Shown piece after piece: positions 6,056-12,198 of a DNA stretch of 64,000 bases (the first letter of the stretch is position 1; every line of letters begins with the position of its first letter). The DNA comes from a virus, in IMG/VR virus record IMGVR_UViG_3300002098_000002; one strand, given 5' to 3'. The notes beneath the pieces were generated by a model, which was not told where the DNA came from, searched no databases, and was given only the letters and a program-made list of their open reading frames with translations. Position numbers and translations under genes: made by a program.

Positions 6056-6130
6056 TCTGGCTTAGTTCAATGGGGAGAACACCGCCCTCGTAAAGCGGAG
6101 ACGGAAGTTCGATACTTCCAGCCAGAACCA
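6056..6130 (+). tRNA. tRNA-Thr(CGU)
   Basis: Acceptor TCTGGCT/AGCCAGA, D stem GTTC/GAAC, anticodon loop CTCGTAA, T arm GGAAG-TTCGATA-CTTCC, encoded ACCA. Confidence 0.85.
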
Positions 6131-6135
6131 ATACT

Positions 6136-6209
6136 GCCCTTGAAGCATTGTGACGATGCAGCGCCCTTGTAATGCGCAGAGCCGAGTTTGATTCTCGGCT
6201 GGGGCTCCA
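6136..6209 (+). tRNA. tRNA-Thr(UGU)
   Basis: Acceptor GCCCTTG/CTGGGGC with one mismatch, D stem GCAT/ATGC, anticodon loop CTTGTAA, T arm CCGAG-TTTGATT-CTCGG, encoded CCA. Confidence 0.8.
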
Positions 6210-6357
6210 AGCCGTGTGGTCTACCGCGTTGGCGAACTTGTAGACATCTGGCCCTGCACTTAATCCGGCTGACGATCTGCTGAAATGCAGTGAAACGCGA
6301 AAGCGCCCCGTGGAATCGCCCCAGCAGGGGAATAACTGGCGATCTAGGCCAACATTT
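6210..6357 (+). ncRNA. structured 148-nt spacer between tRNA-Thr genes (candidate ncRNA)
   Basis: No ORF. Hairpins: GTCTAC-N15-GTAGAC, CTGC-TGAAAT-GCAG, CGC-GAAA-GCG (GNRA loop) and CCCC-AGCA-GGGG, nested inside CGCC...GGCG. Confidence 0.3.
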
Positions 6358-6432
6358 GCTCCCTTAGTGCTAGTGGCAACACGCCCTCTTGGTATGGGGG
6401 AAAGACTGGATCGATACCAGTAGGGAGCACCA
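6358..6432 (+). tRNA. tRNA-Thr(GGU)
   Basis: Acceptor GCTCCCT/AGGGAGC, anticodon stem CCCTC/GGGGG, loop TTGGTAT, T arm ACTGG-ATCGATA-CCAGT, encoded ACCA. Confidence 0.8.
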
Positions 6433-6441
6433 TTTTAAAAT

Positions 6442-6523
6442 GCGCAAGTGGCGTAACGGTAGCCGCGCTGGTCTTAGAAACCAGTCCTTCGGGGTAGGAG
6501 TTCGAGTCTCCTCTTGCGCACCA
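6442..6523 (+). tRNA. tRNA-Leu(UAG)
   Basis: Acceptor GCGCAAG/CTTGCGC, anticodon stem CTGGT/ACCAG, loop CTTAGAA, long variable arm TCCTTCGGGGTA, T arm AGGAG-TTCGAGT-CTCCT, encoded CCA. Confidence 0.9.
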
Positions 6524-6527
6524 ATAC

Positions 6528-6601
6528 GGCCCCATAATTCAATGGTAGAATGCCTCCCTGTCACGGAGAGAACGCCGGATCATAACCGGCTGGGGTCGCC
6601 A
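6528..6601 (+). tRNA. tRNA-Asp(GUC)
   Basis: Acceptor GGCCCCA/TGGGGTC, D stem ATTC/GAAT, anticodon loop CTGTCAC, T arm GCCGG-ATCATAA-CCGGC, encoded CCA. Confidence 0.85.
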
Positions 6602-6606
6602 TTTAA

Positions 6607-6683
6607 CTCCGTGTAGCGCAGTCTGGTAGCGCGTCTGATTTGGGATCAGAAGGTCGCAGGTTCGAACCCTGCCACGGAGACCA
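6607..6683 (+). tRNA. tRNA-Pro(UGG)
   Basis: Acceptor CTCCGTG/CACGGAG, D stem GCGC/GCGC, anticodon stem TCTGA/TCAGA, loop TTTGGGA, T arm GCAGG-TTCGAAC-CCTGC, encoded CCA. Confidence 0.9.
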
Positions 6684-6689
6684 TTTCTT

Positions 6690-6764
6690 GGGGGTGTAGC
6701 TCAACGGTAGAGCTGGCTTTTCATAGGAGCTAGGTCGTGGGTTCAACTCCTACCGCCCCTACCA
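6690..6764 (+). tRNA. tRNA-Met-type (CAU), elongator Met or Ile2
   Basis: Acceptor GGGGGTG/CGCCCCT, D stem GCTC/GAGC, anticodon loop TTCATAG, T arm GTGGG-TTCAACT-CCTAC, encoded CCA. Confidence 0.85.
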
Positions 6765-6776
6765 TATAGGTGAAAC

Positions 6777-7136
6777 ATGCGCGTCGTTGCAAAGCTAGAT
6801 GGAAGCACAGTGCCAGCTTGCTTGTACCTGCACATCTTTGATGCCCCCGGCGATAGGCTGCATCAGAAGTACCGGCACATGATTGAACTCTACAGGCAGG
6901 CCCTTATCAAGGGATGTCATGAGTCCAAAATTCATCTACCGTTTACGACAACTATAGATTTGTGGGTGCATTTCATTGATCCATGTGCGCCTGACTACGA
7001 TCATCTACTCACTGCCCTTTACCAAGCCTTGGATGGTAAACTCCTAGGTAAGGGCGCAAAGCCAGTGCTGTTTTCAGATGACGGAATTGTAGGTACAGTC
7101 CGCAACATCAGTCAGTCAAAGACTACATACAAATAA
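6777..7136 (+). CDS. RusA-like Holliday junction resolvase (putative)
   Basis: 119 aa. PDYDHLLTALYQALDG...FSDDGIVG parallels the RusA DxDNxxKxxxDAL...DDxxV catalytic pattern. The gene sits inside the tRNA array. Confidence 0.5.
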   Translation: MRVVAKLDGSTVPACLYLHIFDAPGDRLHQKYRHMIELYRQALIKGCHESKIHLPFTTTIDLWVHFIDPCAPDYDHLLTALYQALDGKLLGKGAKPVLFSDDGIVGTVRNISQSKTTYK

Positions 7137-7213
7137 CGCCATATAGCTCAGCCGGACAGAGCGTAGGTTTCCGGAACCTAAGGCCAGAGGTTCGACTCCT
7201 CTTATGGTGACCA
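7137..7213 (+). tRNA. tRNA-Arg(CCG)
   Basis: Acceptor CGCCATA/TATGGTG, D stem GCTC/GAGC, anticodon stem TAGGT/ACCTA, loop TTCCGGA, T arm AGAGG-TTCGACT-CCTCT, encoded CCA. Confidence 0.85.
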
Positions 7214-7306
7214 AGTTTGACGGTGCTGCCGCTCAGCTTTCATCACATCGCGAGTGCGTTGAAAGTGATCCCTTGGTGATGCAGGATTAGGAGTACCGTC
7301 AAAACT
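7214..7306 (+). ncRNA. 93-nt stem-enclosed structured element (candidate small RNA)
   Basis: AGTTTGACGGT (7214-7224) pairs with ACCGTCAAAACT (7295-7306), giving 11 bp with one bulge. The enclosed part has CTTTCA...TGAAAG and CGC-GAGT-GCG hairpins. It occupies a slot between two tRNAs but has no T arm. Confidence 0.3.
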
Positions 7307-7315
7307 AACTAGTTA

Positions 7316-7403
7316 GGAAGGATGGCCGAGCGGATTATGGCAGCAGTCTTGAAAACTGAAGAACCGAAAGGTTCCGTGGGTTCGAATCCTACTCCTTCCG
7401 CCA
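7316..7403 (+). tRNA. tRNA-Ser(UGA)
   Basis: Acceptor GGAAGGA/TCCTTCC, anticodon loop CTTGAAA, long variable arm AGAACCGAAAGGTTCC, T arm GTGGG-TTCGAAT-CCTAC, encoded CCA. Confidence 0.88.
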
Positions 7404-8074
7404 TTTGTGAAGCATGTTCTGCCTTACATAACAGAGTGTATGGCAGTGGACGTTTCTGTGGCAGTACCTGTGCACGGTCCTTTTCTACCAAGAAGGATCG
7501 AATATGTATAAATGCAAAATTATCTGCGGCATCAAAACGCCTAGGCCTTAGGCCCCCTTCACAAAAAGGGAAAACAAGAAGTTTAGGGACACGCCAAAAG
7601 GTATCAGAAGCGTTGCTTAGGTTTTTTGAAACCAAAAACAATGGCCCTTCAAGAAGGGGCCGTTATGGGTTTCATGGCCCTACAAAAGAGAAACGTAATT
7701 GTAAAAATTGTGAGAAACCCTTCTTTTGTGATGGCTTTTCAGACGCAAAATGTTGCAAACCAAATTGCACACATGAAAGAAGGATTGCTGCTTATCAAGC
7801 AGAAGTTCTTGGGAAGGTTCTTCAAAACCTTCCAATTCAGAAAAAGCATTTACGTCGTTACTTGTTAAAAACATATGGTGTTTGTAAGACTTGTGGTATA
7901 AAGGAATGGCAAGGAAAACTTTTATCCCTTCAAATACACCATAAAGATTTTAATTCAAAAAATAACATTCTTTCCAATGTAGAACTGCTCTGTCCAAATT
8001 GTCATAGTTTGACAGACAATTATACTGGAAAAGGTAGTAAAGGGATTTCCAGGAAAAAGAAATCTGTTGCCTAA
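7403..8074 (+). CDS. HNH homing endonuclease with N-terminal zinc finger and NUMOD3-like motif
   Basis: HHKDFNSKNNILSNVELLCPNCH is an HNH motif. CEAC...GSGRFCGSTCA is a zinc finger. GKTRSLGTRQKVSEAL is NUMOD3-like. The ORF is open from inside tRNA-Ser (7322) and there is no ATG after the tRNA, so the start is uncertain (ATT 7403 or GTG 7436). Confidence 0.75.
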   Translation: MCEACSALHNRVYGSGRFCGSTCARSFSTKKDRICINAKLSAASKRLGLRPPSQKGKTRSLGTRQKVSEALLRFFETKNNGPSRRGRYGFHGPTKEKRNCKNCEKPFFCDGFSDAKCCKPNCTHERRIAAYQAEVLGKVLQNLPIQKKHLRRYLLKTYGVCKTCGIKEWQGKLLSLQIHHKDFNSKNNILSNVELLCPNCHSLTDNYTGKGSKGISRKKKSVA

Positions 8075-8139
8075 CCAAAATCATGTGACTTCGGATGTAA
8101 AAGCACATAGCTTGGGAGTACTAGCCCAGCACCATTTGA

Positions 8140-8216
8140 CGCGCTGTAGAGGAGTCCGGTTTCCTTGCCACGCTCATAACGTGGAGACACAGGTTCAAAT
8201 CCTGTCGGCGCAACCA
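8140..8216 (+). tRNA. tRNA-fMet-like (CAU) with C1-A72 mismatch
   Basis: Acceptor CGCGCTG/CGGCGCA leaves C1 opposite A72. D stem GAGG/CCTT, anticodon stem CCACG/CGTGG, loop CTCATAA, T arm ACAGG-TTCAAAT-CCTGT, encoded ACCA. Confidence 0.75.
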
Positions 8217-8230
8217 ATACGGAGTTACCC

Positions 8231-8419
8231 ATGCAATGGAAATATACTGCACTTTTTACTCTGGATGAAAAGACGGAGTGGAAGTCAGGTATAGTGGAAG
8301 CTAACAGCGCCAGCATTGCAGAAGATATGGTTTATGATCCCCTGCCGCTTGGAGCGCAGGGTGTTTGTATAAGTGCTGAGTCCTTAGGTGGACCTAATCA
8401 GTTACGGGTTGAGGAATAG
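8231..8419 (+). CDS. small hypothetical protein
   Basis: 62 aa with GGAG 7 nt upstream of the ATG. The stop lies 13 nt inside the predicted 5' end of the tRNA-Tyr-like gene, so either this ORF or that tRNA boundary is uncertain. Confidence 0.4.
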   Translation: MQWKYTALFTLDEKTEWKSGIVEANSASIAEDMVYDPLPLGAQGVCISAESLGGPNQLRVEE

Positions 8420-8494
8420 TGGCGACGGCAAGGTCACGGCGGACTGTAAACCCGCTCCTTATAGGCAGAGGTTCGACTCCTCCCTCACCCACCA
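8407..8494 (+). tRNA. tRNA-Tyr(GUA)-like, atypical acceptor and D region
   Basis: Anticodon loop CTGTAAA on stem GCGGA/CCCGC, long variable arm TCCTTATAGGC, T arm GAGG-TTCGACT-CCTC, 3' CTCACCC-A-CCA. The 5' acceptor GGTTGAG has one mismatch and the D region GTGGC-N9-GTCAC is oversized. Length without CCA is 85 nt, as in bacterial tRNA-Tyr. Confidence 0.55.
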
Positions 8495-8614
8495 GATGAG
8501 ACCGCATACAAGTAACAGCACGATGATGCTAATAAGGGTCTCAATCATGACAACCTCCAATGGTTATGTTTAGAACGTTCATGAACAGATTAAGTTTCAT
8601 CAAAGGAGTACAAC

Positions 8615-8995
8615 ATGACTACCCCTATTTTTTCTGGAAAAATAAATATGAAAGGCTGGGAGCTGGGGGAGAAAACCCAAGAAAAGATTATTAAGAGAAT
8701 AACAAAAGCGGCAGAGAAACTAACCACGTGGCTTCTTGCAGAAGAAAATGATCAACGCTTTGTTACTTTCGCAAGGAGCTTCCGCACCAAAATGGTTTCT
8801 CCTTTGGAGATTGATATCCTTTTTAGTGAACAGAAAAATTCCCCAAGACTGAGCTTCGATCTCAGCACAGTCATAGATGACTTGATTGAAAGTTACATGC
8901 ACGGTAACGATGATAAAGTTATTAGTGCTGTTCTTAAGCAATTGAAGAAAAAAGTAACTGAATTAGAAACTGTTATAGAGAAAAATAAAACTTAA
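8615..8995 (+). CDS. hypothetical protein
   Basis: 126 aa with AAAGGAG 7 nt upstream of the ATG. Charged and helical-looking. No family recognised. Confidence 0.65.
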   Translation: MTTPIFSGKINMKGWELGEKTQEKIIKRITKAAEKLTTWLLAEENDQRFVTFARSFRTKMVSPLEIDILFSEQKNSPRLSFDLSTVIDDLIESYMHGNDDKVISAVLKQLKKKVTELETVIEKNKT

Positions 8996-8996
8996 T

Positions 8997-9067
8997 GGGG
9001 ACTCCGGTGGGCCGGTCGCTGCACTTGCAATGCGGTACAGAGGATTCAATTTCCTCAGTCTCCACCA
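8997..9067 (+). tRNA. tRNA-Ala(UGC) with minimised D arm
   Basis: Acceptor GGGGACT/AGTCTCC includes a G3-U70 wobble, the Ala identity element. Anticodon stem CTGCA/TGCGG, loop CTTGCAA, T arm GAGGA-TTCAATT-TCCTC, encoded ACCA. The D region is only 15 nt (CCGG-TGGG-CCGG-TCG). Confidence 0.6.
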
Positions 9068-9074
9068 AGTTTAT

Positions 9075-9149
9075 TCTCCGGTAGCTGAGTGGTACAGCAG
9101 TCGCCTGTTAAGCGAATGATCGCACGTTCGATCCGTGCCCGGAGAGCCA
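9075..9149 (+). tRNA. tRNA-Asn(GUU)
   Basis: Acceptor TCTCCGG/CCGGAGA, D stem GCTG/CAGC, anticodon loop CTGTTAA, T arm GCACG-TTCGATC-CGTGC, encoded CCA. Confidence 0.88.
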
Positions 9150-9173
9150 ATTTAAGCTCAGAGAGTATTATAA

Positions 9174-9467
9174 ATGTCCGTAGAACAAAATAGAAAAGCT
9201 TATAAGAAATACTATAATACCCGTAGAGTAGTCCTTATTGCGCAAAGGCAGAAGTTTATTTCAGACTTAAAGTTAAATCTGGGCTGTTCTATTTGTGGAT
9301 ACAACAAGTGTGCTCGTGCCTTACACTTTCATCATAAAGAAAATAAAGATGAAGGCATTGCAAGAATGTGCCGGACTTCTGGACTACAAAGCATTAAATC
9401 TGAGATAGAAAAATGTATTCTTGTTTGCGCCAATTGCCATGCTGAGATTCATGATGCCATTAAATAG
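9174..9467 (+). CDS. HNH endonuclease
   Basis: 97 aa. CSICG...LHFHHKENKD...CILVCANCHAEIH is an HNH motif. It is paralogous by eye to the minus-strand ORF at 11005-11490. Confidence 0.8.
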   Translation: MSVEQNRKAYKKYYNTRRVVLIAQRQKFISDLKLNLGCSICGYNKCARALHFHHKENKDEGIARMCRTSGLQSIKSEIEKCILVCANCHAEIHDAIK

Positions 9468-9480
9468 GCAGTACCAATAA

Positions 9481-9557
9481 CTTCGCGTAGCTCAGCAGGA
9501 CAGAGCGCCCGTCTACGAAACGGGAGGTCGTAGGATCGAAGCCTACCGCGAAGGCCA
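9481..9557 (+). tRNA. tRNA-Arg(ACG)
   Basis: Acceptor CTTCGCG/CGCGAAG, D stem GCTC/GAGC, anticodon stem CCCGT/ACGGG, loop CTACGAA, T arm GTAGG-ATCGAAG-CCTAC, encoded CCA. Confidence 0.9.
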
Positions 9558-9596
9558 AGACGTATTGTTAAAACAAACCAACTGGAGTTAAGTAAA

Positions 9597-10814
9597 ATGC
9601 AAGGCAAAAGTATCTTAATCAGGTTCTTTGCTACTATTCTAGTGATTTTCGGATCAGGCATCGTTTCCAGCATATACAATCCGCAAGCTACCTTGATTGC
9701 TGGAAAAGTGGCAGGTCAGCAGTTTTCCCCAAGTGACGGAGCGTACCTTTCAGCGAGTTACATCCTTAGTTCACTAAGCACTGTGAACGTGATAATCGGG
9801 TTGCTTGCCCTGCTATTGCTAGTGTGCATCTGGTTTGCACCAGCGCGTTTACTGGTTGAAGCACTTAAAGCATCTTCAGTAGTTGCTTTGTTGGCTTTCT
9901 CAGGGATTGGAAGAGCTGATGCCTACTACGACACAAAAGATATAACTGAAGCCTACACCATCCTTCCAAATGAAAGTGCCTTTTGGATCCCCGATGTTGG
10001 TAACAACAAGGATGATCAAGCAAAGATGGATAGTGAGGCTTATTACGCAGCCAACAAACTGGCTGTAAAACGCTTCTTGATCCCCCACGTAAAACTCAGT
10101 GGTACTGGTGGTTCATGGGGGTGGGATGCTTACGTGCCCGCTGGCCGTTTGATCATTGTCCCGCGCACACCATATTCCCGTGAATGGGTGGATGCCCATG
10201 ATCGCGGTACTGCTAAAACTAAGCAGGGCTTCCCTTGTCAAACAAAAGAAGGTTTGAACATTACGGCAGGTGTATCGATTGGAACATCCGTCATGGAAGC
10301 AAATGCGGCCAAATACTTGTATAGGGCAGGCGTTGCTAACAGCACCACACAAGGTGCTGTAAGGACCGACCCCGCTGTAATTTTCCAATCAGTTTACTAT
10401 GGCCGTAGCCTTGAAAACTTTATGGATGACATCGGCAGAAAAAAGGTACAGACCCTGATTTGCGCCGAAATATCATCCAGAACCTTTGATCAAGCTAATG
10501 CAGATACAAACCCTATAATGGTCAAGGTTGAAAAGGATGCCAAGGACTACTTCGCTGCCTATGGCATTACCTTGGATTTCATTGGGTGGGCCGATACGTT
10601 CACCTTCGATGATCCTGTTCAGAAGGCTGTGAATGACAAATACATTGCCAACTCTTTGGCTTCAGCTATGACCACGCTTCAGGCTGTGGCACAGTTGAAG
10701 GTGCAAGAGGGCCTTGGCTCAGGCTTGGCTAATAAGGGGCTGCCAATCGTGGTTACCCCTGATATGATTAACGCTTTGATCGGGTTGGTTAAGGCACCAC
10801 CTCCGGTTAAGTAA
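9597..10814 (+). CDS. membrane protein, SPFH/band-7-like (putative)
   Basis: 405 aa with about three N-terminal TM helices. The soluble part follows an SPFH-like pattern: AFWIPDVG...RFLIPHV...GLNITAGVSIGTSV...AAKYLY...YGITLDFIGWADTFTFDDPVQKAVN. Confidence 0.45.
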   Translation: MQGKSILIRFFATILVIFGSGIVSSIYNPQATLIAGKVAGQQFSPSDGAYLSASYILSSLSTVNVIIGLLALLLLVCIWFAPARLLVEALKASSVVALLAFSGIGRADAYYDTKDITEAYTILPNESAFWIPDVGNNKDDQAKMDSEAYYAANKLAVKRFLIPHVKLSGTGGSWGWDAYVPAGRLIIVPRTPYSREWVDAHDRGTAKTKQGFPCQTKEGLNITAGVSIGTSVMEANAAKYLYRAGVANSTTQGAVRTDPAVIFQSVYYGRSLENFMDDIGRKKVQTLICAEISSRTFDQANADTNPIMVKVEKDAKDYFAAYGITLDFIGWADTFTFDDPVQKAVNDKYIANSLASAMTTLQAVAQLKVQEGLGSGLANKGLPIVVTPDMINALIGLVKAPPPVK

Positions 10815-10821
10815 CTGGTTT

Positions 10822-10895
10822 CGCCCCTTAGCTTAGTGATAAAGCAACGGACTCTGACTCCGTGGACCTCAGTTTGATTCTGAGAGGGGCTGCCA
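10822..10895 (+). tRNA. tRNA-Gln(CUG)
   Basis: Acceptor CGCCCCT/AGGGGCT with an unpaired 1-72 position. D stem GCTT/AAGC, anticodon stem ACGGA/TCCGT, loop CTCTGAC, T arm CTCAG-TTTGATT-CTGAG, encoded CCA. Confidence 0.8.
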
Positions 10896-10902
10896 ATTTC
10901 AT

Positions 10903-10976
10903 GGTGTGGTGGCCGAATGGTTAGGCTGGAGATTGCAACCCTCCCAATGCGTGTTCGATTCACGCCCACACCTCCA
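10903..10976 (+). tRNA. tRNA-Cys(GCA)
   Basis: Acceptor GGTGTGG/CCACACC, anticodon loop TTGCAAC, T arm GCGTG-TTCGATT-CACGC, discriminator T, encoded CCA. Confidence 0.85.
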
Positions 10977-10981
10977 AATTT

Positions 10982-11063
10982 GCCCTCGTAGCCAGTTAGG
11001 ACTTCTAATCCTTTATCTGTAGTGGAGCTGAAAACGCGGGTTCAAATCCTGCCGAGGGTGCCA
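10982..11063 (+). pseudogene. aberrant tRNA-like gene (possible Arg-UCU hairpin, no canonical D arm)
   Basis: The acceptor GCCCTCG/CGAGGGT and T arm GCGGG-TTCAAAT-CCTGC plus GCCA are good. The 47-nt core does not fold into a cloverleaf. The only hairpin is AGGA-CTTCTAA-TCCT. The 3' two thirds is antisense to the end of the HNH ORF. Confidence 0.4.
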
Positions 11064-11490
11064 GTCTCTTTAAAGAACTCTTTCCTGCACTTTCTTTTGC
11101 GTGATGTATCCTGTGACAATTTGAACAAAGGATAATACATTTTTCAATCTCTAACTTGGCCTTACTTATCTGACCTTTTCTAAAAAGGTTACTAACCTCA
11201 GAATCTTTAGATTTTGGATCTATGTGATGAAAATCTAAAGCTGCTGGATGAGAATTGAAACCACAATTTTTGCACCCTTTTCCAAGTTTTACAGAATCTA
11301 ACCAAGCCCTTTTAACTATCTTGCTTTGCGTGTTCTTTAAACCCAGACGTATTTTGTGTTTAAGATAATAGGCTTTGGCTGCGTTACTAGAACAATTTTT
11401 GCAAGATCTGGAAAAGCCATCTTTATGTGTTCTGTCTTTGCTAAAAGACGAGAGGGCTTGTAGTTGTTTACAACGGTAACACTTTTTCAT
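11005..11490 (-). CDS. HNH endonuclease
   Basis: 161 aa. CKNCGFNSHPAALDFHHIDPKSKD...CIILCSNCHRIHH is an HNH motif. This is the only minus-strand gene in the left arm. Its last 18 or so codons read antisense through the aberrant tRNA. Confidence 0.8.
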   Translation of the reverse strand: MKKCYRCKQLQALSSFSKDRTHKDGFSRSCKNCSSNAAKAYYLKHKIRLGLKNTQSKIVKRAWLDSVKLGKGCKNCGFNSHPAALDFHHIDPKSKDSEVSNLFRKGQISKAKLEIEKCIILCSNCHRIHHAKESAGKSSLKRLAPSAGFEPAFSAPLQIKD

Positions 11491-11518
11491 ATCTTTATGA
11501 TAAACAAGTTCTGAAAAA

Positions 11519-11550
11519 GTGTAAAGGTTCGAGTCCTCGCCGGAGCACCA
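11519..11550 (+). pseudogene. tRNA 3' fragment (T loop, acceptor 3' strand and CCA only)
   Basis: GGTTCGAGTCC-TCG-CCGGAGC-A-CCA is followed by the spacer AATAC seen after other tRNAs. There is no matching 5' acceptor (GCTCCGG) upstream, and the T stem pairs for only 3 bp. Confidence 0.45.
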
Positions 11551-11554
11551 ATAC

Positions 11555-11630
11555 GGTCACGTACATCAGAGGATAGATGGCCCCGGTCCTAACGGGGAGG
11601 CCGCAGGTTCGAATCCTGCCGTGATCACCA
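11555..11630 (+). tRNA. tRNA-Arg(CCU)
   Basis: Acceptor GGTCACG/CGTGATC, D stem CATC/GATG, anticodon stem CCCCG/CGGGG, loop GTCCTAA, T arm GCAGG-TTCGAAT-CCTGC, encoded CCA. Confidence 0.88.
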
Positions 11631-11637
11631 ATTCAAT

Positions 11638-11729
11638 GGAAAGATGGGTGAGTGGTTTAAACCAGCGGTTTGCTAAACCGCCGACTGCCGTAAAGCGGTC
11701 CGGGAGTTCGAATCTCCCTCTTTCCGCCA
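11638..11729 (+). tRNA. tRNA-Ser(GCU)
   Basis: Acceptor GGAAAGA/TCTTTCC, anticodon stem GCGGT/ACCGC, loop TTGCTAA, 20-nt variable arm, T arm GGGAG-TTCGAAT-CTCCC, encoded CCA. Confidence 0.88.
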
Positions 11730-11732
11730 ATT

Positions 11733-11806
11733 GCTGGTATAGCTCAATGGTAGAGCCACGGTCTTCCAAACCGTTGACGCGGGTCCGATTCCCGCTACCC
11801 GCTCCA
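11733..11806 (+). tRNA. tRNA-Gly(UCC)
   Basis: Acceptor GCTGGTA/TACCCGC with a 3-70 mismatch. D stem GCTC/GAGC, anticodon stem ACGGT/ACCGT, loop CTTCCAA, T arm GCGGG-TCCGATT-CCCGC, encoded CCA. Confidence 0.78.
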
Positions 11807-11809
11807 ATT

Positions 11810-11884
11810 GCCCCGTTAGTTTACTGGCTAGAACACTGGTCCTTCAAACCGGGAGAAGCGGATCGATACCGCTACGGGGTACCA
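11810..11884 (+). tRNA. tRNA-Glu(UUC) with C at position 33
   Basis: Acceptor GCCCCGT/ACGGGGT, D stem GTTT/GAAC, anticodon stem CTGGT/ACCGG, loop CCTTCAA, T arm AGCGG-ATCGATA-CCGCT, encoded CCA. Confidence 0.78.
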
Positions 11885-11889
11885 ATTAC

Positions 11890-11963
11890 AGCCGATTCGT
11901 TCAATGGTAGGACGCGAGACTTTGAAGCTCGCTACGAAGGTTCGATTCCTTCATCGGCTTCCA
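11890..11963 (+). tRNA. tRNA-Gln(UUG)
   Basis: Acceptor AGCCGAT/ATCGGCT, D stem GTTC/GGAC, anticodon loop CTTTGAA, T arm GAAGG-TTCGATT-CCTTC, encoded CCA. Confidence 0.85.
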
Positions 11964-11964
11964 G

Positions 11965-12035
11965 CGCGCTGCTTTCGGCAAAGGCTGGCCTTTCATACGG
12001 GCCACAAGTTGGATCGACACCAACCTGCGCGACCA
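11965..12035 (+). tRNA. tRNA (CAU) with minimised D arm, Met or Ile2
   Basis: Acceptor CGCGCTG/CTGCGCG with one mismatch. Anticodon stem GGCCT/GGGCC, loop TTCATAC, T arm GTTGG-ATCGACA-CCAAC, encoded ACCA. The D region is only 15 nt (CTTT-CGGC-AAAG-GCT), the same layout as the Ala gene. Confidence 0.55.
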
Positions 12036-12040
12036 TTTAT

Positions 12041-12116
12041 GCTAGGTAGGCCGATCAGGTGATGGCGCGGGGCTGTGGACTCCGTTAGGCTGGATCGATA
12101 CCAGCACCTAGTACCA
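12041..12116 (+). tRNA. tRNA-His(GUG), A73 and no encoded G-1/C73 pair
   Basis: Acceptor GCTAGGT/ACCTAGT, anticodon stem CGGGG/CTCCG, loop CTGTGGA, T arm GCTGG-ATCGATA-CCAGC, discriminator A, encoded CCA. The base before position 1 is T. Confidence 0.82.
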
Positions 12117-12120
12117 ATAC

Positions 12121-12198
12121 GGGAGTGTAGCTTAGCCTGGTCTAAAGCATGGAGCCCCAACCTCCAGATCGTGGGTTCAAATCCTACCTCTCTCGCCA
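12121..12198 (+). tRNA. tRNA-Trp(CCA) with C at position 33
   Basis: Acceptor GGGAGTG/CTCTCTC with one mismatch. D stem GCTT/AAGC, anticodon stem TGGAG/CTCCA, loop CCCCAAC, T arm GTGGG-TTCAAAT-CCTAC, encoded CCA. Confidence 0.78.

Follow-up and report, generated by a model that had tools for sequence, protein, structure and literature searches.

Compact tRNA cores have been described in several systems. The tRNAPyl of Methanomethylophilus alvus has a connector of 0 nt, a D loop of 4 nt, an anticodon stem of 6 bp, and a variable arm of 3 nt; it is L-shaped, is served by ordinary elongation factors and ribosomes, and works on bacterial ribosomes (PMC7609411). Mammalian mitochondrial tRNASer(UCN) (type I), also L-shaped, combines a reduced connector and a small D loop with an anticodon stem of 6 bp and a variable loop of 3 nt, and it keeps G18, G19, and TPsiC (PMC7609411). 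The engineered ZtRNA, whose identity is not Pyl, joins a tRNAPyl-type augmented D helix to standard D/T-loop pairs and is active in E. coli translation (PMC6337575). tRNASec and allo-tRNAs have a 4-nt D loop that holds G18G19 (PMC7609411). Irregular tRNAs of phage and metagenomic tRNA clusters include 8/4 Ser and His tRNAs (Mukai et al. 2017, PMC5389517).

We analyzed a 64,000-nucleotide stretch of viral DNA (IMG/VR record IMGVR_UViG_3300002098_000002; here called the window) that carries two tRNA genes of unusual layout, a tRNA-Ala(UGC) and a tRNA with the anticodon CAU (Table 1). Both have the layout of the described compact cores, with a connector of 0 to 1 nt, a D loop of 4 to 5 nt, a 6-bp anticodon stem, and a 3-nt variable loop. 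We consider it probable, at roughly 0.7, that both encode genuine elongator tRNAs that function with a compact core.

The window genes share with tRNAPyl those core lengths and a canonical 7/5 acceptor/T branch. However, tRNAPyl has neither G18G19 nor TPsiC, its anticodon is CUA, its discriminator is G73, and its synthetase is PylRS, whereas the window genes have the GG, a TPsiC-type T loop (TTC/ATC), the anticodons UGC and CAU, A73, Ala determinants, and a place in a phage array. We rejected them as tRNAPyl proper on the basis of their anticodons, A73, the GG, and the T loop. tRNASer(UCN) differs from them in having a connector of 1 nt rather than 0, and it is mitochondrial and serine-specific, with a dedicated mt-SerRS. 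ZtRNA is also a compact core with G18G19-T loop pairs; however, it is synthetic and was selected in the laboratory, whereas the phage tRNAs are natural and carry bacterial Ala, Arg, or CAU features. In tRNASec the D stem is 6 bp, the linker is 2 nt, the branch is 8/5 or 9/4, and the variable arm is long, in contrast to the 7/5 branch, 4-bp D stem, and 3-nt variable loop of the window genes.

Compared with a canonical bacterial class-I tRNA (RF00005), the window genes keep the 7-bp acceptor, U33 and R37 in an anticodon loop of 7 nt, a T stem of 5 bp whose 7-nt loop is of the TTCNANN type (T55 and C56), the discriminator, and the CCA. However, only the GG of the D arm is retained. The connector is 0 nt and not 2, so that there is no U8/N9; there is no A14, R15, or A21; and the D loop has 4 nt and not 7 to 11. 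With tRNAPyl, tRNASer(UCN), and ZtRNA, there are three working precedents for such a core. An earlier reading made from the sequence only (the sequence-only reading) had proposed a possibly undescribed architecture. The fold type is in fact known already, from tRNAPyl and tRNASer(UCN). What we did not find in the open-access literature is an account of a compact D arm in tRNAs that serve standard amino acids in phages or mobile arrays, and a 2020 review of non-canonical tRNAs does not mention phages (PMC7609411).

Table 1. Coordinates of the tRNA array, the two compact genes, and their parts in the window
Feature	Position	Strand	Description
tRNA array	6056..12198	+	21 canonical tRNA genes and two compact ones; small ORFs and HNH genes interleaved
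tRNA-Ala(UGC), compact core	8997..9067	+	68 nt plus encoded CCA
Ala D hairpin	9004..9015	+	stem CCGG/CCGG, 9004-9007 with 9012-9015
Ala anticodon arm	9018..9036	+	6-bp stem, 9018-9023 with 9031-9036; loop CUUGCAA; anticodon 9026-9028
Ala T arm and acceptor 3' strand	9040..9064	+	GAGGA/TTCAATT/TCCTC; AGTCTCC, U70 opposite G3; discriminator A73
CAU-anticodon tRNA (elongator Met or Ile2), compact core	11965..12035	+	68 nt plus encoded CCA
CAU D hairpin	11972..11983	+	stem CUUU/AAAG, loop CGGC; 0-nt linker

The two genes and their array

The Ala gene reads, segment by segment, GGGGACT-CCGG-TGGG-CCGG-TCG-CTGCA-CTTGCAA-TGCGG-TACA-GAGGA-TTCAATT-TCCTC-AGTCTCC-A-CCA. Its D hairpin follows acceptor base 7 directly, with a linker of 0 nt. 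The D loop, UGGG at 9008-9011, corresponds to N, G18, G19, and G20, with G20 taken as the base after the GG. The top pair of the anticodon stem, G9018-U9036, is the equivalent of 26:44. The unconstrained minimum-free-energy (MFE) fold of the gene is the compact cloverleaf, in which the 4-bp D helix comes right after base 7, two unpaired bases separate it from an anticodon stem of 6 bp, and the variable loop has 3 nt. Neither of the two bases above 26:44 is able to pair with the variable loop, unlike those of some relatives. All five bacterial Ala determinants in Table 1 of PMC9976931 (A73, G2-C71, G3.U70, G4-C69, and G20) are present. The gene starts 1 nt past the stop codon of an ORF at 8615-8995.

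The CAU gene reads CGCGCTG-CTTT-CGGC-AAAG-GCT-GGCCT-TTCATAC-GGGCC-ACAA-GTTGG-ATCGACA-CCAAC-CTGCGCG-A-CCA. With the 26:44-type pair U11986-A12004, its anticodon stem comes to 6 bp and its variable loop to 3 nt. The gene lies between tRNA-Gln and tRNA-His, with spacers of 1 nt and 5 nt. The sequence-only reading was accurate base for base in giving both genes 15 nt between the acceptor and anticodon stems, no 8-9 linker, a 4-bp D stem, and a 4-nt loop, and the G3-U70 of the Ala gene and the GG of both tetraloops that it named are present in the sequence. It had also described the acceptor, anticodon, and T arms of the Ala gene as regular. The CAU gene has a T6xT67 acceptor mismatch, A54 in place of T54, U32, and C38, none of which had been mentioned.

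The CAU gene is the weaker case of the two. Its T loop, AUCGACA, carries A60 as well as A54. Its MFE fold is near the compact cloverleaf, but the register of the D helix is off by one and two acceptor pairs are open. Neither the Met nor the Ile determinant set (PMC9976931) is complete. A73, G2-C71, C3-G70, and CAU of the Met set are present, but 4:69 is G-C and not U4-A69, and 5:68 is C-G and not A5-U68. C29-G41 and A37 (and A73) of the Ile set are present, but C4-G69 and A38 are absent. Because AUA makes up 14% of the Ile codons of the phage, it is plausible that the CAU gene serves as tRNA-Ile2.

We rejected two other assignments for the CAU gene. It is not a bacterial initiator, because C1-G72 is paired (there is no C1xA72) and the stem GGCCU/GGGCC is without the three G-C pairs at 29-31:39-41. 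Nor is it a recent copy of the initiator-like tRNA at 8140-8216, which has C1xA72. The two have the 5' acceptor strand CGCGCTG in common and little else.

All tRNAs of the array have an encoded CCA and short spacers, and the compact genes are spaced like their canonical neighbors. The compact Ala gene is the sole tRNA-Ala of the array in both default and relaxed ARAGORN runs, and Ala accounts for about 10% of the codons in the long ORFs of the window. Two other stretches of the array are odd and tRNA-like. The first (10982-11060) scores 31.3 bits on RF00005, is not called by default ARAGORN, and overlaps the end of a minus-strand HNH ORF. The second (8406-8490) scores 22 bits on tRNA-Sec and is called, as Tyr(gta), only at ARAGORN -ps90.

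The window is a piece of a phage genome and codes for a portal, a family-A DNA polymerase, an amidase, and homologues of DnaB and SbcC. The identity of its polymerase to that of any cultured phage is only about 30%, and a BLAST search of the compact genes against 50,697 cultured-phage records gave no match, that is, no cultured carrier. Phages with a 58 to 64% identical DnaB helicase (L046-L051 and L001, one of them rated 100% complete) have zero tRNA genes. We also looked for the compact loci in relatives by synteny, using homologues of an SPFH-like protein encoded in the array and of the DnaB encoded just past it, and were led to phages without tRNA genes nearby or anywhere. Because these relatives lack tRNA genes, the 6-kb array and the HNH genes in it would be a lineage-specific acquisition, and it looks like a recent one. 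No close relative carries the two genes; therefore, the conservation shown here is that of the design, not of these two loci.

Detection, recurrence, and covariation

The sequence-only reading had suggested ARAGORN as a check. Default ARAGORN called neither compact gene. At a 95% threshold (-ps) or in mitochondrial mode (-mt) it called both, but with forced folds. The -ps call at 8997-9067 is Ala(tgc), drawn with a linker CC, a G.U-rich 3-bp D stem, and a 6-bp anticodon stem. For the CAU gene, the result was either a 78-nt fold running into tRNA-Gln or, with -mt, a mitochondrial "D-loop" fold (11965-12035). We rejected the 78-nt fold (11958-12035), which takes in the tRNA-Gln 3' end and has two acceptor mismatches. 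A search of 7.5 kb with Rfam RF00005 (gathering cut-off, 29 bits) at an E-value of ≤10 gave no match to either gene.

Compact relatives fared similarly. Only 1 of 13, from eight short loci, passed the RF00005 cut-off, at 31.2 bits, and the others had no match or had sub-threshold matches to tRNA-Sec, tmRNA, and tymovirus tRNA-like models. The best sub-threshold model was tRNA-Sec for compact Arg and tmRNA for compact Ala (L121:388-456, L126:475-543, L093:1171-1241, and L077:4-74). One further sequence, L116:1150-1226, scored 47.3 bits, which reaches the tmRNA gathering score, with just 77 nt matched. Because the Rfam tRNA model misses most compact tRNAs and ARAGORN misses or mis-folds them, phage tRNA repertoires, and the conclusions on codon usage and reassignment that are drawn from them, are incomplete.

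We searched other arrays for the same 68-nt pattern, as the sequence-only reading had also suggested, and found it widely. The IMG/VR pattern (GGGG, 20 to 25 N, CTTGCAA, 14 N, TTCNA, 10 N, CTCC) describes an Ala(UGC) with a 5' half that is 2 to 7 nt short. It gave 35 loci, with only a few chance matches estimated. Most of these loci are inside arrays of 10 to 43 tRNAs, and many show the window layout, with the D stems CCUA/UAGG, CUGA/UCAG, CUAA/UUAG, CCAA/UUGG, GUUG/CAAC, and GCGU/ACGC. A stricter pattern, in which YGGG was fixed at the right distance and the stem was unconstrained, gave 86 loci in metagenomes. Eighty of them have at least three default-ARAGORN tRNAs, and the median is 3 tRNAs per kb. 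The stricter pattern also matched 7 times in 185,579 prokaryote species (one genome each). All 7 matches are on contigs of metagenome-assembled genomes (MAGs), inside arrays of 6 to 30 tRNAs in ≤8 kb. The same geometry was found in more than 100 distinct sequences, and tRNA clusters of the phage type that contain the design number over a hundred.

In the MAGs with matches, 68-nt sequences that score at least 55 bits on the compact model fall on the array contigs and on one other contig, and ordinary tRNAs of 71 to 73 nt score at most 44 bits. PHROG searches of the flanks of two MAG contigs with compact tRNAs gave one match only, a DNA methyltransferase.

We also ran our own cloverleaf scanner, which requires acceptor, anticodon, and T stems, U33, R37, and an NTCRANN T loop, over 988 kb. 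It returned 876 class-I tRNA-like matches, and 0 in a reversed-sequence control. The D-region lengths were 14 nt (n = 12), 15 nt (n = 48), 16 nt (n = 39), 17 nt (n = 25), 18 nt (n = 232), 19 nt (n = 266), 20 nt (n = 168), and 21 nt (n = 85), in proportions that are biased because the scanned loci had been chosen for their compact Ala genes. Within the window, the two genes in Table 1 were the only ones with a D region of ≤16 nt.

To examine the fold, we aligned every distinct sequence (n = 37) in which the D region is 15 nt, the variable segment is 4 nt, and the loop holds GG. The alignment was gap-free, and the D stem was unfiltered. The acceptor, anticodon, and T helices are uninformative, because the filters imposed them; no filter acted on the D helix or on 26:44. 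Pairing in the D helix amounts to 91% (n = 37), with four to five standard pair types at each of its four positions, and to 97.9% in a 12-sequence set. The alignment pair 22:40, which is equivalent to 26:44, is formed in 36 of the 37 sequences (CG 23, UA 7, GU 4, and UG 2). When the 3' partners were slid by 1 to 3 columns, only 36 to 51% were paired, and none of 500 shuffles reached the observed values. This covariation gives a layout in which a 7-bp acceptor stem leads directly (0 nt) into a 4-bp D stem and its 4-nt loop; after two bases come an anticodon stem of 6 bp, a variable loop of 3 nt, and a T stem of 5 bp. It also changes one detail of the sequence-only reading, which had a 3-nt linker after the D stem: two of those bases are unpaired, but the last pairs with the first variable base as 26:44. 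We rejected an anticodon stem of 7 or 8 bp as a feature of the class. Extra pairing between linker and variable loop occurs in L009, L036, and L014, but it is at about chance level overall by a hand count, and there is none in the window.

A covariance model (R1) was built from 35 sequences from outside the window. Its top two matches in the window were the Ala gene, at 63.6 bits (E-value, 7e-16), and the CAU gene, at 49.6 bits (E-value, 7e-12), both full-length and gap-free; the E-values of this home-made model are rough. The best of the canonical tRNAs of the window reached 35.3 bits, with an indel in the D arm. The sequence-only reading had argued from two genes with one non-canonical design. 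The layout is indeed shared, and the design recurs elsewhere with covariation and identity bases. The opposite case that it had raised, a recent deletion with no conservation, is not what we found, because the design is conserved in other arrays and all four D-stem pairs are compensated.

Isotypes and identity bases

The unique compact tRNAs with a D region of ≤16 nt comprise 33 Ala, 23 Arg, 14 CAU, 5 Trp, and a few others, frequencies that are biased because the loci were gathered with Ala-specific patterns. The base after the GG is G in 32 of the 33 compact Ala tRNAs, and in all 9 of those for which the pattern had left this base free. Among the 23 compact Arg tRNAs, it is A in 18. Canonical tRNAs for Ala and Arg from these loci show similar proportions. 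G20 is a bacterial determinant for tRNA-Ala, and A20 is the main one for tRNA-Arg (PMC9976931, Table 1). The retention of G20 or A20 in a loop of 4 to 5 bases is hard to explain unless these RNAs are presented to synthetases. AlaRS mainly uses the acceptor stem and G20, ArgRS uses A20 and the anticodon, and MetRS uses the anticodon and the acceptor (PMC9976931). These needs may explain why Ala, Arg, and CAU dominate.

A compact CAU family in seven arrays (L040-L044, L122, and L131, from Gemmataceae-labeled MAGs and soil metagenomes) has exactly the geometry of the window gene. It has the same CGGC tetraloop and covarying stems (GGGC/GCCC and GGAU/GUCC). The seven arrays also resemble the window in having a compact Ala gene alongside the compact CAU gene.

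Two further observations concern these seven arrays. Their compact Ala tRNAs, on the Gemmataceae/Fimbriiglobus MAG and soil contigs, have a conserved A5xA68 acceptor mismatch. The arrays contain one or two compact CAU tRNAs each, one of which has the loop GUCAUGA (G32, G37).

Proposed function and alternative explanations

The recurrence in unrelated arrays, the compensation in the D stem, and the isotype-specific bases support the view that the compact design is maintained by selection. We suggest that the D helix and its tetraloop would present G18-G19 to Psi55/C56 of the T loop at the elbow and would retain the "variable pocket" base at position 20. The two unpaired bases and the Watson-Crick 26:44 pair would replace the lower D stem and the tertiary layers 8:14 and 15:48. 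Because the D helix begins at base 7, it would sit higher than a canonical D stem, and the space below it would be filled by the 6-bp anticodon stem, the two unpaired bases, and the short variable loop. The stacked layers (6 + 2 + 4) equal those of a canonical tRNA (5 + 1 for 26:44 + 4 + 2 for 8:14 and 15:48). By this count, the distance from the anticodon to the elbow should be kept, and with it the L shape.

In this scheme, the array transcript would be cut by host RNase P and 3' nucleases, with the CCA already encoded. The compact tRNAs would most likely be charged by host enzymes. Host AlaRS would recognize the Ala tRNA through A73, G2-C71, G3.U70, G4-C69, and G20, and the charged tRNA would read GCA/GCG(/GCU). 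The CAU tRNA would be charged as Met, or as Ile after lysidine formation. The design may have been selected because it makes the tRNAs less dependent on being modified or recognized by the host, or because it lets them evade tRNA-targeting nucleases. The escape from tRNA-directed nucleases is an attractive hypothesis, and a structurally distinct tRNA would be an obvious candidate for evading tRNA-cleaving immunity.

A much larger claim can be built on these elements, and we regard it as doubtful. It holds that compact tRNAs (Ala, Arg, Met/Ile, and others) form a widespread, discrete class that occurs almost only in phage and mobile arrays and is charged by the host through identity bases. The class would have been selected as a poor substrate for the tRNA-targeting defense nucleases of the host, or for the phage's own destroyers of host tRNAs. 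A phage could thus tell its own tRNAs from those of the host, and phage tRNA complements would have been systematically undercounted, because most compact tRNAs escape annotation with covariance models.

We think it unlikely that the two genes make tRNA-shaped RNAs that are perhaps charged but do not decode, and that serve as decoys for defense nucleases or as RNase P/RNase Z punctuation for neighboring mRNAs. The Ala gene adjoins the ORF at 8615-8995, as punctuation would. However, a pure processing signal would not need an anticodon arm, and both genes have canonical 7-nt anticodon loops with U33, a purine at 37, and standard anticodons. Some irregular array tRNAs are charged in vitro yet do not decode in vivo (PMC5389517), and phage tRNAs are reported to be counter-defense tools (eLife 2023; Nat Commun 2024). 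The deviations of the CAU gene at U32, C38, and A54 would also suit an RNA that does not decode. Against this, isotype-specific identity bases are kept, and the compact Ala gene supplies the only tRNA-Ala of the array.

Decay into nonfunctional pseudogenes, that is, canonical tRNA genes that have lost 4 to 5 nt of the D arm, seems quite improbable to us. It is at odds with a geometry that is found in more than 100 distinct sequences and has compensatory changes at every D-stem pair. The other stems are perfect or near perfect, the CCA is intact, and the R1 matches are full-length and gap-free, with 0 matches in the reversed-sequence control. Decay would account for the rejection of both genes by standard tools and for the acceptor mismatch of the CAU gene, and around the HNH gene at 10982-11550 the array does hold tRNA-like remnants that are plainly aberrant.

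An ordinary cloverleaf, in which positions 8-9 form a 2-nt linker and the D stem is very weak (2 to 3 bp), as in the -ps drawing of the Ala gene, is hardly tenable, because the first two D pairs covary (8:19 is CG 22, GC 9, AU 1, and UA 1; 9:18 is UA 12, CG 9, and GC 9), the thermodynamic fold has a 4-bp helix, and the ARAGORN folds of relatives require shifted, mismatched acceptor stems.

If the two genes are functional elongator tRNAs, mitochondria and the Pyl system may not be the only settings in which a tRNA can do without the conserved tertiary core (U8:A14, R15:Y48, and the base triples), as long as G18G19 and the identity base at position 20 are kept. The dominant isotypes, Ala, Arg, and CAU, would then be natural test cases for the tolerance of synthetases to a compact core. 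The genes would also be natural compact scaffolds, presumably charged by ordinary bacterial synthetases, and possible starting points for tRNA design.

Two variants of the layout were seen among the loci collected. In the second compact Ala subtype, one T separates the acceptor and D stems, and the first T-stem pair is a G49xA65 mismatch (L014, L020, L036, L058, L061, L074, L076, L090, L113, and others); the two features co-occur in nearly every sequence, as counted by eye. T8 could pair with A65 to give an 8/4 acceptor/T branch for Ala, of the kind reported for phage Ser and His tRNAs (PMC5389517). The third subtype (L017, L032, L054, L068, L069, and L125) has a GT linker, a 3-bp D stem CTA/TAG, and a YGGG loop. 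Its anticodon stem extends to about 8 bp, as the 3' linker (CACYG) pairs with YGGG in the variable region.
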